64,000 nucleotides of DNA from Escherichia coli. GTDB taxonomy: Bacteria > Pseudomonadota > Gammaproteobacteria > Enterobacterales > Enterobacteriaceae. This document shows, piece by piece, positions 1 to 32,253 of the stretch (within the stretch, counting starts at the first letter, position 1; each line of letters starts with the position of its first letter). Both the position numbers and the translations under genes were made by a program. The notes under the pieces were generated by a model. The model made no database searches, was not told where the DNA came from, and saw only the letters and a list, made by a program, of their open reading frames with translations. The stretch lies in the NCBI RefSeq assembly GCF_003334815.1, contig NZ_QOWO01000018.1. One strand, written 5' to 3'.

Positions 1-549
1 ATTTAAAATAAAATCGGTGTGGGCGTCGTCGAGCAAAATACGAAAACAGCTCTCTTCATCGCCCGCAAGGGTAAAGGTTAATTGATACGCCCAGTGGGTA
101 ATCACCGTGCTGCTGTCCAGCTTTAATTTCAGCGCAATACCGGAGGTTTGCAGATTAAATATCAGCGTGCAGATATCCAGCGCGAGTCGGTTCTTTAATC
201 GTGTTTCGGTTTTGGTCGGCAGGCCGTTATGCGCTTTCGCCTCTTCAAGAGACGACTCCAGACCATAAAAATTGCCCAGCAGCATTAACAGCAAGGAGCG
301 ATCAATATCAAACGCCAGATGCCCGACCTGGGAAATCATTAGTTCAGCGTTTTTATTAATAATATCCATTTCGCAGCCAATCTTTTTTAAGGTGATATTG
401 CTGCGATGCTTTTTGAGAAAGTAGCTGCCCAGATGCGAATCAATCACGTCAAAATTCCCCGTAAACAGGGTCGGCAGGTGATGGTAGGGGCGTCCGAGCC
501 GATTACCTTCTAATTTAAAGATGCCTGGCGTTTTACTGTACTTCAGCAT
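1..549 (-). CDS. lfiM: Flagellar motor switch protein FliM homolog (lateral flagellar type), N-terminal part only; gene continues past window start
   Basis: Minus-strand frame open from ATG at 549 to the window edge (183 codons, translated by hand); segment FYGLESSLEEAKAHNGLPTKTETRLKNRLAL resembles the FliM region FGGDGRFPTKVEGREFTHTEQRV; divergent from lafK as in lateral flagellar loci. Confidence 0.55.
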   Translation of the reverse strand, partial: MLKYSKTPGIFKLEGNRLGRPYHHLPTLFTGNFDVIDSHLGSYFLKKHRSNITLKKIGCEMDIINKNAELMISQVGHLAFDIDRSLLLMLLGNFYGLESSLEEAKAHNGLPTKTETRLKNRLALDICTLIFNLQTSGIALKLKLDSSTVITHWAYQLTFTLAGDEESCFRILLDDAHTDFILN

Positions 550-726
550 GGCTTACTTTCTCTGCTGTAATGGTATGGGCGATTTTGTGCACGCAAATCC
601 GGCAGTGACACAAGGTGAGGTATTAAATAGAGGGGGAGTGAAAGGGGCAAATTATTAATAGGATGAAAAAATAATTAAATTATTAAAGGGCTAGATATCA
701 GGCATCGTCATAACACATTGCACGAA

Positions 727-814
727 CCGTAGGCCTGATAAGACGCGCAGCGTCGCATCAGGCATCGGCGCACGATTGCCGGATGCGGCGTAAACGCCTT
801 ATCCGGCCTACATG
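727..814. repeat. REP/BIME cluster (repetitive extragenic palindromes)
   Basis: gcctgataagacgcgcagcgtcgcatcaggc and gccggatgcggcgtaaacgccttatccggcctaca units, typical E. coli REP sequences, in the lfiM-lafK intergenic region. Confidence 0.8.
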
Positions 815-935
815 GATAACTCATTGTTTACCATAAAATAATATTTTTATTATCGTTTAATTCGAACTTGTTAATCCCGCCGGTGATACGCTTCACAATA
901 TCCTGTTTTCTGTCGCTACTGATATCGTTCACCCT

Positions 936-1922
936 ATGTCTGAACTTATTGCAACTGCCGCTTCCAGCATTAACGCTTTTACTCTGGCAAAGCGTGTCGC
1001 CGCATTTAACGTGCCGGTGCTCATTCAGGGCGAAACCGGCGCGGGCAAAGAATGCGTGGCGAAATATATTCACACCGTAGCCTTTGGTGAAAATGATAAC
1101 GCGCCCTATATCGGCGTGAACTGCGCAGCGATCCCGGAAAACATGCTGGAAGCTACATTATTTGGCTACGACAAAGGCGCATTTACCGGCGCAATTGCCA
1201 GTGTGCCAGGAAAAATGGAACTAGCGAATAACGGCACCTTATTACTCGATGAAATTGGCGATATGCCGCTGGCGCTACAGGCCAAAATATTACGCGTATT
1301 GCAGGAGCAACAGGTTGAGCGATTAGGCAGCAACCGACAAATTAAACTCAATTTTCGCCTGATTGCCTGCACCAATAAAAACCTTGAACAGGAAGTGGCT
1401 GCCGGGCGTTTTCGTGAAGATCTCTATTATCGTCTGGCGGTTATTCCTATTACCATGCCGCCACTGCGTGAACGTCTGAACGATATTATTCCGCTGGCAG
1501 AGTCATTTATAAAAAAGTACTCCACGGTGCTGGTGAAAAATATCACCCTTTCAGAATCTACCCGCCGGGCGCTGCTCAATTACCGCTGGCCCGGCAACGT
1601 GCGCCAGCTGGAGAACGCCATTCAGCGGGGAATGATTTTAAATCGCGACGGCGTGATTTACCCGGATGCCTTAGGCCTGCCGGAAACGGACGTTGCCGAC
1701 CGCAGCGAACTGCAATGGCCTGTTCAGCCCGCCGTCCACATTGCCGAAACCAGCGATTTGGGCCAGCACGGACGAAGCGCCCAGTATCAATATATCGCTG
1801 ACCTGATGCGTAAATATCAGGGCAACCGCAGCAAAATCGCCGACCTGTTAGGCATTACCCCGCGCGCACTGCGCTATCGACTGGCCTCCATGCGCAAGCA
1901 AGGTATCGAAGTTTTCTCCTGA
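936..1922 (+). CDS. lafK: Sigma-54-dependent transcriptional activator (AAA+ enhancer-binding protein), lacks N-terminal receiver domain
   Basis: Walker A GETGAGKE, GAFTGA loop (YDKGAFTGA), Walker B LLLDEIGDM, C-terminal Fis-type HTH (ADLLGITPRALRYRL); ATG at 936 with in-frame TAA at 858-860 upstream. Confidence 0.8.
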   Translation: MSELIATAASSINAFTLAKRVAAFNVPVLIQGETGAGKECVAKYIHTVAFGENDNAPYIGVNCAAIPENMLEATLFGYDKGAFTGAIASVPGKMELANNGTLLLDEIGDMPLALQAKILRVLQEQQVERLGSNRQIKLNFRLIACTNKNLEQEVAAGRFREDLYYRLAVIPITMPPLRERLNDIIPLAESFIKKYSTVLVKNITLSESTRRALLNYRWPGNVRQLENAIQRGMILNRDGVIYPDALGLPETDVADRSELQWPVQPAVHIAETSDLGQHGRSAQYQYIADLMRKYQGNRSKIADLLGITPRALRYRLASMRKQGIEVFS

Positions 1923-30451: not shown

Positions 30452-30463
30452 AGTGAAGAAATC

Positions 30464-31327
30464 ATGCAAAAAATATTAGGTTTACTGGTGGTGCTCGGCT
30501 GCGTATTTGGCGGTTATTTTGAAGCGGGCGGGCAATTAGTGGCTATCTGGCAACCGGCGGAAATGATCATTATTTTGGGTGCCGGTTTCGGGGCGATGAT
30601 TATTGGTAACCCGAAACATGTGCTGAAAGAGATTGCCCATCAAATTAAAGGCGTAATCAGTAAAAAACAGCTCGGGCCGGAGTTTCAGCGCCAGCTATTA
30701 ATGTGCCTGTATGAGTTACTCGAAATGGTGCAAAACGGTGGTCTGCGCATGCTGGATCAACATATTGAGCAACCGGAAGAGAGCACCATTTTCCAGAAAT
30801 ACCCGCTGGTGTTAACCCAGAAGCGGCTGGTGACCTTTATTGCCGATAACTTTCGCCTGATGGCGATGGGTAAAATCGACGCCCATGAACTGGAAGGCAT
30901 TCTCGATCAGGAACTGGACACCGCGGAAGAGTCGCTGCTAACGCCGTCGCGCTCGCTGCAACGTACCGCCGAAGCGATGCCGGGGTTTGGCATTTGTGCG
31001 GCGGTGTTGGGCATCATCATCACCATGCAGTCGATTGACGGCTCTATCGCCCTGATTGGCCTGAAAGTGGCGGCAGCGCTGGTGGGGACATTTTTAGGCG
31101 TCTTTATCTGCTACTGCCTGATGGACCCACTCGCCAACGCCATGGAACAACAGGCGCGGGCAGAACATTCTTTGCTGGAATGCGTGCGTACCGTGCTGGA
31201 GGCGCAGGCAGGCGGCAAACCGACGCTGCTGGCGGTGGACGCCGGGCGTAAGCTACTGCATCTGGCGTCCAAACCGACCTTCGCCAACCTCGACGCGTGG
31301 GTGAATGCGATGCTGGAGCAAGAATAA
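30464..31327 (+). CDS. lafT: Flagellar stator protein MotA homolog
   Basis: 287 aa, four TM helices, MotA/TolQ/ExbB family. Confidence 0.85.
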   Translation: MQKILGLLVVLGCVFGGYFEAGGQLVAIWQPAEMIIILGAGFGAMIIGNPKHVLKEIAHQIKGVISKKQLGPEFQRQLLMCLYELLEMVQNGGLRMLDQHIEQPEESTIFQKYPLVLTQKRLVTFIADNFRLMAMGKIDAHELEGILDQELDTAEESLLTPSRSLQRTAEAMPGFGICAAVLGIIITMQSIDGSIALIGLKVAAALVGTFLGVFICYCLMDPLANAMEQQARAEHSLLECVRTVLEAQAGGKPTLLAVDAGRKLLHLASKPTFANLDAWVNAMLEQE

Positions 31328-31329
31328 GC

Positions 31330-32253
31330 ATGAGAAAGACGGGTAACCGCCGCGATCGTGGGGCAAAAACCACCATCGTCCGGCGGCAGATCAAAAAGAA
31401 TCATGCCGGGCACCACGGCGGGGCGTGGAAGGTGGCGTTCGCCGACTTTACTTTGGCAATGATGGCGCTGTTTATGACGCTGTGGATTGTCAACAGCGTC
31501 AGTAAATCCGAGCGTGAAAGCATTATCGCCGCGCTGCACGGGCAGTCGATTTTTAACGGTGGTGGGCTGTCGCCGTTAAATAAAATCAGCCCGTCTCATC
31601 CGCCAAAACCTGCCACCGTGGCGGTGCCGGAAGAGACGGAGAAAAAAGCGCGTGATGTGAATGAGAAAACGGCGCTGCTGAAGAAGAAATCCGCCACCGA
31701 GCTTGGTGAGCTGGCAACCAGTATCAACACCATTGCCCGTGATGCGCATATGGAAGCGAATCTGGAGATGGAGATTGTTCCCCAGGGATTACGCGTGCTG
31801 ATTAAAGACGACCAGAACCGCAATATGTTTGAACGCGGCAGCGCGAAGATTATGCCGTTCTTTAAAACGCTGCTGGTGGAGCTCGCGCCAGTGTTCGACT
31901 CGCTCGATAATAAAATTATTATTACCGGGCATACCGATGCGATGGCCTACAAAAACAATATCTACAACAACTGGAACCTTTCGGGTGACCGCGCGCTTTC
32001 GGCTCGTCGGGTGCTGGAAGAGGCCGGAATGCCGGAAGATAAAGTGATGCAGGTAAGCGCAATGGCGGACCAGATGCTGCTGGATTCCAAAAATCCGCAA
32101 AGCGCGGGCAACCGGCGCATTGAGATTATGGTGCTGACCAAAAGTGCGTCCGATACGCTGTATCAATACTTTGGTCAGCATGGGGATAAAGTGGTGCAGC
32201 CGCTGGTGCAAAAGCTGGATAAGCAGCAGGTGCTTTCGCAGCGAACGCGTTAA
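31330..32253 (+). CDS. lafU: Flagellar stator protein MotB homolog with OmpA-like peptidoglycan-binding domain
   Basis: 307 aa from ATG 31330; TM helix WKVAFADFTLAMMALFMTLW with conserved Asp; C-terminal NLSGDRALSARRVL...GNRRIEI OmpA-like motif. Confidence 0.85.
   Translation: MRKTGNRRDRGAKTTIVRRQIKKNHAGHHGGAWKVAFADFTLAMMALFMTLWIVNSVSKSERESIIAALHGQSIFNGGGLSPLNKISPSHPPKPATVAVPEETEKKARDVNEKTALLKKKSATELGELATSINTIARDAHMEANLEMEIVPQGLRVLIKDDQNRNMFERGSAKIMPFFKTLLVELAPVFDSLDNKIIITGHTDAMAYKNNIYNNWNLSGDRALSARRVLEEAGMPEDKVMQVSAMADQMLLDSKNPQSAGNRRIEIMVLTKSASDTLYQYFGQHGDKVVQPLVQKLDKQQVLSQRTR

Follow-up and report, generated by a model that had tools for sequence, protein, structure and literature searches.

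The first 32,253 positions of a 64,000-nucleotide stretch of Escherichia coli DNA (contig NZ_QOWO01000018.1; the whole stretch is referred to as the window) are the E. coli Flag-2 locus, a chromosomal second flagellar gene cluster of the lateral-flagella type. This identity is unambiguous, and the assignment to the enterobacterial Flag-2 family is secure. A reading made from the letters alone (the sequence-only reading) had proposed a Flag-2-type lateral flagellar cluster here, and the gene map together with sequence identity to E. coli 042 and A14 confirmed it. We put at roughly 60% the probability that the locus is competent to build a second flagellum, which would be switched on only in settings that ordinary laboratory growth fails to mimic. 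That an intact locus is also a functional one, as we infer here, is plausible and draws support from purifying selection and from conserved sigma-54 promoters. The 042 Flag-2 locus and the lfh/lfi/lfg/laf nomenclature reportedly go back to Ren, Beatson, Parkhill and Pallen in 2005.

Thirty-five complete open reading frames (ORFs) run from lafK (start at 936) to lafU (end at 32253), all with a normal start and stop codon and none with an internal stop. The only gene cut by the window edge is lfiM, which is incomplete because it runs off the left end, leaving the first 183 of its 283 codons in the window. The claim of the sequence-only reading that everything from fliM through motB is full-length therefore stands for the 35 genes from lafK to lafU and falls for fliM (lfiM). 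The lengths of the 35 ORFs equal those of their 042 and A14 orthologues within 0–9 amino acids (aa) of allelic variation. Relative to 042, the products are 92–100% identical and 30 of the 35 genes have the same length; the others are lafK (+2 aa), the TagD-like gene (−3), the glycosyltransferase gene (−9), lfgD (+3) and lfgC, which is frameshifted in 042. Alignment to homologues, the check that had been named for this locus, found no frameshift or premature stop in the 35 genes, and the same result was obtained independently with the 42 Flag-2 genes of A14 as queries. Most products covered their NCBIfam profiles end to end; for those of lfgN, lafD and lafW there was no profile match. Among the lateral-type NCBIfam models, scores in bits against the curated cut-off were 668/440 for LafA, 579/383 for LafU, 447/339 for LafS, 772/715 for FliI, 433/323 for FlgH, 534/467 for FlgE, 315/210 for FlgF and 317/192 for FliH.

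The conserved Flag-2 set comprises 39 genes in three clusters, lfhAB-lfiRQPNM-lafK-lfiEFGHIJ, lfgNMABCDEFGHIJKL and lafWZABCDEFSTU (De Maayer 2020, PMC6993521). The window holds 32 of the 39 as complete genes, in the canonical order and with the canonical strands; of lfiM it holds a part, and the other six lie beyond the edge. The Flag-2-specific genes that Flag-1, the primary system, lacks (lafK, lafW and lafZ) are all present and 95.7–97.5% identical to those of 042. The rod gene lfgC (13551–13982, + strand) deserves particular mention, as the 042 copy carries a 2-bp insertion after about nucleotide 45. This insertion is absent from the window, where lfgC encodes 143 aa (TIGR01395, 130 bits, cut-off 102, profile 3–136/137), so the uninterrupted 143-aa frame had been read correctly. 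The 3′ boundary was read directly: between the end of lafU at 32253 and the start of dinB at 32324 is the gap of 70 bp that had been stated. The 5′ boundary, where lfhA stands beside rayT/yafL, lies beyond the edge of the window and was found in A14, NCTC10973, 300709, SX12 and FORC_081.

Since lfiN, lfiP, lfiQ, lfiR, lfhB, lfhA and the rest of lfiM are upstream of the window, they were judged from relatives only. Over its first 16 kb the window matches several complete genomes at 100% identity (A14, AH21, NCTC9041 and others), in which the Prokaryotic Genome Annotation Pipeline (PGAP) marks the stretch as flagellar genes, and the same allele occurs in dozens of RefSeq genomes; for positions 16001–34000 there was no exact match among RefSeq complete genomes. 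Five near-identical genomes (A14, NCTC10973, 300709, SX12 and FORC_081) differ from the window by 9–19 single-nucleotide polymorphisms (SNPs) per 32 kb at most. The closest over the whole locus is FORC_081 (9 SNPs per 32 kb), and A14 differs by 19 SNPs and a 118-bp spacer indel. All five carry intact copies of the seven genes lfiM, lfiN, lfiP, lfiQ, lfiR, lfhB and lfhA. Four of the five have the whole set of 42 genes unbroken, the exception being FORC_081, whose lfiI has the nonsense change Q45*. To call the cluster apparently intact is thus justified for the window and likely to hold for the upstream part outside it.

The locus has also been kept under selection. Over 30 equal-length genes, the ratio of nonsynonymous to synonymous divergence (dN/dS) relative to 042 was 0.052 at a dS of 0.18 (Nei-Gojobori). 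For single genes it was 0.009 in lafA, 0.02 in lafT and 0.04 in lafU, and 0.016 in the housekeeping neighbour dinB. Such low values mean that the proteins have been under strong constraint since the two lineages split.

Furthermore, the spacers hold sigma-54 promoter motifs. A scan of both strands of the 64 kb (128 kb in total) returned three sites at 11/12 of the extended consensus and none at 10. All three are in Flag-2 spacers, on the coding strand and 31–36 nt before a start codon: CGGCACGCTTATTGCA at 11501–11516 (−), 34 nt before lafV; TGGCACGGCGATTGCT at 13161–13176 (+), 36 nt before lfgB; and TGGCACGCCTTTTGCC at 26088–26103 (+), 31 nt before lafB. The lfgB and lafB boxes are the two perfect TGGCAC-N5-TTGC matches in the window, where about 0.1 would be expected by chance (128,000 positions / 4^10). 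Across 13 haplotypes that are 94–100% identical, adjacent spacer bases differ, but the GG and GC dinucleotides do not change in any of the three boxes, and the lafV and lafB boxes are invariant. We predict that these boxes are sigma-54-dependent flagellar promoters of the class-2 type. A different motif noticed by eye before lafA, lfgK and lfgM (TAAG..N11-12..CCGCTTT) was rejected as circular, because a regular-expression scan returned essentially only the sites it had been taken from, and it is not used as evidence.

The candidate activator of these promoters is LafK (936–1922, +), which has a Walker A motif (GETGAGKE), the GAFTGA sigma-54 contact loop and a C-terminal helix-turn-helix (HTH), fitting bacterial enhancer-binding proteins of the AAA+ and HTH type. 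Its alignments with the NifA, FlbD and NtrC models cover their central and C-terminal portions, the NtrC and FlbD models being matched from profile position ~120–200, and no N-terminal receiver or other sensory domain appeared in the profile matches. Its activity is therefore probably set by the amount of LafK made. The divergent lafK–lfiM spacer (550–935, 386 bp) is AT-rich and contains repetitive extragenic palindromic (REP) sequences; the spacer upstream of lafA (24445–24929) is AT-rich as well. A second regulator, LafZ (23602–24444, −), resembles membrane-anchored ToxR/CadC proteins, with an N-terminal OmpR/ToxR-type winged helix (Pfam Trans_reg_C, residues 25–97) followed by a single hydrophobic segment (143–161).

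Between lfiJ and lfgN, variable region 1 (VR1, 7401–11466) holds three flagellin-modification genes and no effector-like cargo. They encode a TagD-like glycerol-3-phosphate cytidylyltransferase (7401–7796, +; TIGR01518, 115 bits, profile 1–123/125), an 814-aa glycosyltransferase (7914–10358, −) with a GT2 N-terminus (Pfam PF00535 at 20–134, E 2e-17) and a weak TagF-like C-terminus (PF04464 at 605–728, E 0.011), and LafV, a FliB-like flagellin lysine-N-methylase (10537–11466, −). LafV scored 43 bits with NF038110, below the 85-bit cut-off, and its orthologue is annotated as lysine-N-methylase in 33E and E7-1N7. A TagD gene in VR1 has been described by De Maayer 2020, together with a proposed role of VR1 in flagellin modification (PMC6993521), and the predicted TagD-like enzyme and adjacent glycosyltransferase would fit this role.

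At least 80% of the locus was present in 1,172–1,247 of 5,426 complete E. coli genomes (~22%), which agrees with 24 of 100 reported by De Maayer et al. (PMC6993521). The remaining ~78% have deleted it. In the K-12-type scar, the terminal ~770 nt of lafU adjoin a piece of flhA, and the Flag-2-negative genomes, K-12 derivatives included, matched the window locus only there, in line with the earlier remark that K-12 keeps mere remnants. We then considered the integrity of 16 full-length loci, comprising the five near-identical ones and 11 of other haplotypes taken as two evenly spaced samples. All 42 genes were intact in 8 of the 16. Among the 11, four were fully intact (G3X16-2, 08_3323, E7-1N7 and 30348_1#195), the only lesion of 2013C-4538 was a frameshift in the VR1 glycosyltransferase gene, and six each had a different inactivating lesion in core genes: an lfgJ stop and IS1 at lfgN in 74-2, an in-frame lfgG-lfgH fusion in LD39-1, an lfiP stop-loss in CREC-591, lafW and lafZ frameshifts in 33E, an lfgF frameshift in CS5L, and lafE and lafZ stops in ST540. 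To these add the lfiI nonsense codon of FORC_081 and the +2-bp frameshift in 042 lfgC. We also note that lafZ was hit in two sampled genomes (33E and ST540). Given the different core lesions in 6 of 11 loci, the locus is often dispensable, and the distinct lesion types and genes indicate repeated independent inactivation despite the locus-wide dN/dS of 0.05. Six of the 14 Flag-2-positive entries in the first sample were partial loci. The first sample (0/6 intact) had raised the view that almost every Flag-2 locus in E. coli is broken, which was rejected when 4 of 5 were intact in the second. The intact share of full-length copies is about one third to one half; the sample behind this estimate is small, and some of its frameshifts are possibly assembly errors.

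We propose that the locus would encode a complete, separately regulated flagellum. LafK and sigma-54 would fire the promoters of three operons. Rod, hook and rings would come from lfgBCDEFGHIJ(KL); the cap, the chaperones, hook-length control, the lateral sigma-28 factor LafS and the LafT/LafU stator from lafBCDEFSTU; and flagellin modification from lafV with the glycosyltransferase gene. The hook-basal body would then export the anti-sigma factor LfgM, LafS would be freed and lafA transcribed. Modification of LafA would probably involve both lysine methylation by LafV and glycosylation or glycerol-phosphorylation by the GT2/TagF-like enzyme, with CDP-glycerol supplied by the TagD-like enzyme. 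LafT/LafU would power rotation. The ToxR-like, membrane-anchored LafZ is the likely environmental input and a candidate sensor. That the haplogroup of the window encodes a working, conditionally expressed second flagellum of just this kind, driven by LafK and sigma-54 and bearing methylated, glycerol-phosphate- or glycan-decorated LafA, is a tentative proposal to which we give somewhat less than even odds.

Several observations weigh against a working flagellum. The rest of lfiM and the six export genes fall outside the window, and missense changes may have inactivated proteins whose frames are open. In the window scan, neither lfiM nor lafK was preceded by a sigma-54 box, and no enteric sigma-28 consensus (TAAAG-N14-GCCGATAA) turned up before lafA, nor was there a convincing match to this consensus before lfgM, lfgK or lafT. 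By published accounts (E. coli W paper, PMC3032704; PMC6993521), functional Flag-2 flagella have never been demonstrated in E. coli, and a full-text literature search found no later paper demonstrating its activity in this species. Western blots detected no LafA in the ST131 strain EC958, whose lfgC is intact, and a fliC mutant of this strain did not move at 28 or 37 °C and thus displayed no Flag-2 motility (PMC4637896). E. coli Flag-2 is without motY and maf-5, which Vibrio and Aeromonas lateral systems need (PMC3032704), and in NCBIfam searches none of the 35 window products matched a MotY or Maf model. The six differently damaged loci among the 11 of other lineages count on the same side. 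Alternatively, the locus could be a structurally intact but silent relic in the present life style of the strain, a copy not yet hit by a disabling mutation. Such silence might stem, for example, from H-NS-type silencing of the AT-rich regions upstream of lafK and lafA, or from an activator or accessory factor encoded elsewhere having been lost. The EC958 results, the missing motY and maf-5, the AT-rich spacers at 550–935 and 24445–24929, the independent lesions (FORC_081, 74-2, LD39-1, CREC-591, 33E, CS5L, ST540 and 042) and the deletion of the locus in ~78% of genomes are all in keeping with a relic. On the other hand, a dN/dS of 0.05 at a synonymous divergence of 0.18 is unlike that of a long-silent relic, the sigma-54 boxes have stayed invariant amid varying spacer bases, and 8 of 16 full-length loci retain all 42 genes. 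We regard a silent relic as rather unlikely.

Two further alternatives bear on the use of the apparatus and on its completeness. De Maayer et al. (PMC6993521) proposed a mainly non-locomotory role, in which the apparatus would work in flagellar type III export or form a surface fibre that is adhesive or immunogenic, because many Flag-2 carriers have working primary flagella and some loci carry cargo genes for secreted effectors. The locus in the window, however, carries no effector-like cargo, and its stator genes are strongly constrained (lafT 0.02, lafU 0.04) with the proton-binding Asp of LafU kept, which argues for a rotating motor and makes such a role quite improbable for this locus. Equally, the intactness could be an artefact of where the window starts if the locus were broken just upstream, in the rest of lfiM or in lfiN, lfiP, lfiQ, lfiR, lfhB or lfhA. 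This block does lie outside the window, and the lfiP stop-loss of CREC-591 is a lesion within it; nevertheless, with all seven genes intact in five of five near-identical genomes, we consider such a break most improbable. A second flagellum that would be made conditionally remains the explanation we prefer.

The Flag-2 locus itself, its presence in a fifth to a quarter of E. coli, the K-12 scar and strains with intact lfgC are already known from the literature. Intact lfgC has been published for W, Crooks and the ST131 strain EC958 (PMC3032704, PMC4637896). According to the same papers, the W locus contains a Mu prophage, and lafW and lafZ are missing from EC958. As intact loci are common and have already been described, the finding is correct but ordinary. 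The allele group nonetheless offers a clean genetic background for E. coli Flag-2, with intact genes, three conserved sigma-54 promoters and no cargo insertions. Strong purifying selection (dN/dS 0.05) together with frequent lineage-specific knock-outs suggests a niche-dependent benefit, which would not surprise specialists. If the locus does encode a working conditional flagellum, its haplogroup would be the first in E. coli to allow a demonstration of Flag-2 function, and would let one address why strong purifying selection maintains the locus in a fifth of the species.

The remaining genes of the locus are described here in map order. The partial lfiM (1–549, −), encoding a FliM-like switch protein, is 97.8% identical to 042 LfiM over its N-terminal 183 aa, and its orthologue is annotated as FliM/FliN family protein in FORC_081 and A14. 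The genes after lafK are all on the + strand: lfiE (FliE, 1937–2278; TIGR00205, 72.5 bits, profile 1–71/71), lfiF (FliF, MS ring, 2283–3929; TIGR00206, 222 bits, profile 19–554/555), lfiG (FliG, 3907–4917; TIGR00207, profile 12–329/338; 99.4% identical to 042), lfiH (FliH, 4921–5631; NF009925, 316.6 bits, cut-off 192, profile 2–227/228), lfiI (5624–6961) and lfiJ (FliJ, 6964–7398; TIGR02473, profile 2–141/141). The FliI export ATPase gene lfiI is intact, without the Q45* codon of FORC_081, and its product has the Walker A motif GSGVGKS (NF005535, 772 bits, cut-off 715).

Beyond VR1 come three genes on the − strand. The FlgN chaperone gene lfgN (11594–12022) has the 042 length, is 95.8% identical and has an orthologue annotated flgN, with no NCBIfam match at E ≤ 1e-5; lfgM (12035–12313) encodes the anti-sigma-28 factor (TIGR03824, 45.5 bits, cut-off 40.75) and lfgA (12394–13131) the P-ring chaperone (TIGR03170, 112 bits). 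The rod, hook and ring genes on the + strand begin with lfgB (rod, 13213–13548; NF009328, profile 1–116/116), followed after lfgC by lfgD (hook cap, 13982–14695; NF007198, profile 10–217/218), lfgE (hook, 14839–16041; NF005286, 534 bits, cut-off 467, profile 1–402/402), lfgF (rod, 16041–16778; NF009280, 315 bits, cut-off 210) and lfgG (distal rod, 16857–17642; TIGR02488, 352 bits, cut-off 253). The L ring is encoded by lfgH (17846–18511; NF009072, 433 bits, cut-off 323, profile 1–220/220) and the P ring by lfgI (18526–19626; NF003676, 450 bits, cut-off 300). The product of lfgJ (19626–19925) has 99 aa, as in 042, and consists of the rod-binding domain only (NF009349, profile 19–97/97). Hook-associated proteins 1 and 3 are encoded by lfgK (20229–21605; TIGR02492, 347 bits, cut-off 171) and lfgL (21620–22549; TIGR02550, 196 bits, cut-off 127). 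The Flag-2-specific lafW (22566–23543, +) is 96.6% identical to and as long as 042 lafW at the protein level; LafW has no recognisable Pfam or NCBIfam domain, and its putative role as a hook-associated protein is as named in De Maayer 2020 (PMC6993521).

The laf genes that follow lafZ are on the + strand too. The lateral flagellin gene lafA (24930–25844) matches NF033376 (lat_flg_LafA_1) with 667.8 bits (cut-off 440) over profile 1–304/304. It is followed by lafB (FliD filament cap, 26135–27451; NF005955, profile 32–455/465), lafC (FliS chaperone, 27474–27866; TIGR00208, 79 bits, cut-off 54; 100% identical to 042), lafD (27871–28182), which is FliT-like, of 042 length and annotated FliT in SX12, lafE (FliK hook-length control, 28179–29240; TIGR02514 C-terminal domain match, 042 length) and lafF (FliL, 29248–29715; NF005435, profile 11–150/157; 100% identical to 042). 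The lateral-system sigma-28 gene lafS (29735–30451) matches NF009091 (447 bits, cut-off 339, profile 1–233/233). The locus closes with the stator genes lafT (MotA, 30464–31327; TIGR03818, 373 bits, cut-off 304, profile 1–281/282) and lafU (MotB, 31330–32253; NF005273 LafU, 579 bits, cut-off 383). The transmembrane segment of LafU, AFADFTLAMMALF, keeps the conserved MotB Asp. By family scores and this residue LafT/LafU are a MotA/MotB-type stator, for which H+ specificity is predicted.

The spacers of the locus are rich in repeats. The window has 14 matches to the REP core (GCCKGATGCGRCG), all within its first 26 kb, compared with a chance expectation of 0.8. The spacers concerned fall within 550–26134. 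Thirteen of the 14 lie in Flag-2 spacers, intra-operon spacers included, and none in the 32 kb downstream of the locus; examples are at 751–790, 7824–7836, 14780–14792, 16809–16821, 17651–17784, 19942–20145, 23574–23586 and 25855–25867. In related genomes rayT, a REP-associated transposase gene, adjoins lfhA. The lfgJ–lfgK spacer (19926–20228) contains two ~115-bp REP-pair units resembling bacterial interspersed mosaic elements (BIMEs). In most near-identical genomes this spacer is 118 bp longer, apparently by one extra unit, and in 042 it is shorter (175 bp), so that a copy-number polymorphism lies directly upstream of lfgK. Inverted repeats of another type (CCCTCTCCC / GGGAGAGGG) occur in the spacer between the glycosyltransferase gene and lafV (10359–10536), that is, between two genes that would share a transcript from the predicted lafV sigma-54 promoter; we take them to be similar to the BoxC elements of E. 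coli.

Downstream of the locus, the rtcB/prfH pair is present as fragments only (34905–35111 and 35122–35628, +) behind yafP, with the same sequence as in A14; 042, CREC-591, 2013C-4538 and CS5L each carry an intact pair. The tRNA-Thr (CGT) gene thrW (43521–43596) is followed by a LysR-family gene fragment (43723–44061) and paoABCD, which accounts for a block of 59–61% GC at 44–48 kb, and there is no prophage or island at thrW in this strain. The gene ecpD (51516–53159, −) for the E. coli common pilus tip adhesin is open and encodes 547 aa, whereas the A14 copy stops at codon 366. The inverse-autotransporter adhesin gene fdeC (60699–62663, +) encodes 654 aa compared with 1418 aa in A14, owing to an in-frame internal deletion of 2292 bp in the Ig-like repeat region. 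The two sides of the deletion junction overlap by ~10 bp, and the start and stop codons are the same.

Among known systems, the locus is 99.9–100% identical to those of A14, NCTC10973, 300709 and SX12, which have 42 of 42 genes intact; unlike most near-identical relatives, the window has one 118-bp REP/BIME unit fewer in the lfgJ–lfgK spacer. It shares with 042 the site ending before dinB, the gene order and strands and the VR1 content (TagD-like gene, glycosyltransferase gene and lafV), and differs from it in the intact lfgC, in the REP content of the spacers and in lacking, within the window, the RelE/ParE-HTH pair that 042 has between lafW and lafZ. Like the laf systems of Vibrio parahaemolyticus and Aeromonas hydrophila, it is a dedicated second flagellar gene set that includes LafK as sigma-54 activator, a sigma-28 and an anti-sigma factor of its own, the flagellin LafA and a MotA/MotB-type stator. 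In contrast to them, it has no motY or maf-5, holds all genes in one locus and has a LafK without the N-terminal receiver-type domain, and lafW and lafZ are specific to enterobacterial Flag-2. The function of the Vibrio and Aeromonas lateral systems has been demonstrated by experiment, whereas the E. coli locus is known here from its genes. Within the enterobacterial type, Yersinia enterocolitica Flag-2-type flagella are expressed at low temperature, according to the citing literature. Plesiomonas shigelloides likewise has an enterobacterial Flag-2-type cluster, whose lateral flagella drive swarming; within the order, no other such cluster has been shown to be required for this (PMC4481668, as cited in PMC6993521). 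Its flagellin carries legionaminic acid, whereas VR1 of the window would predict a GT2/CDP-glycerol-type modification together with lysine methylation.

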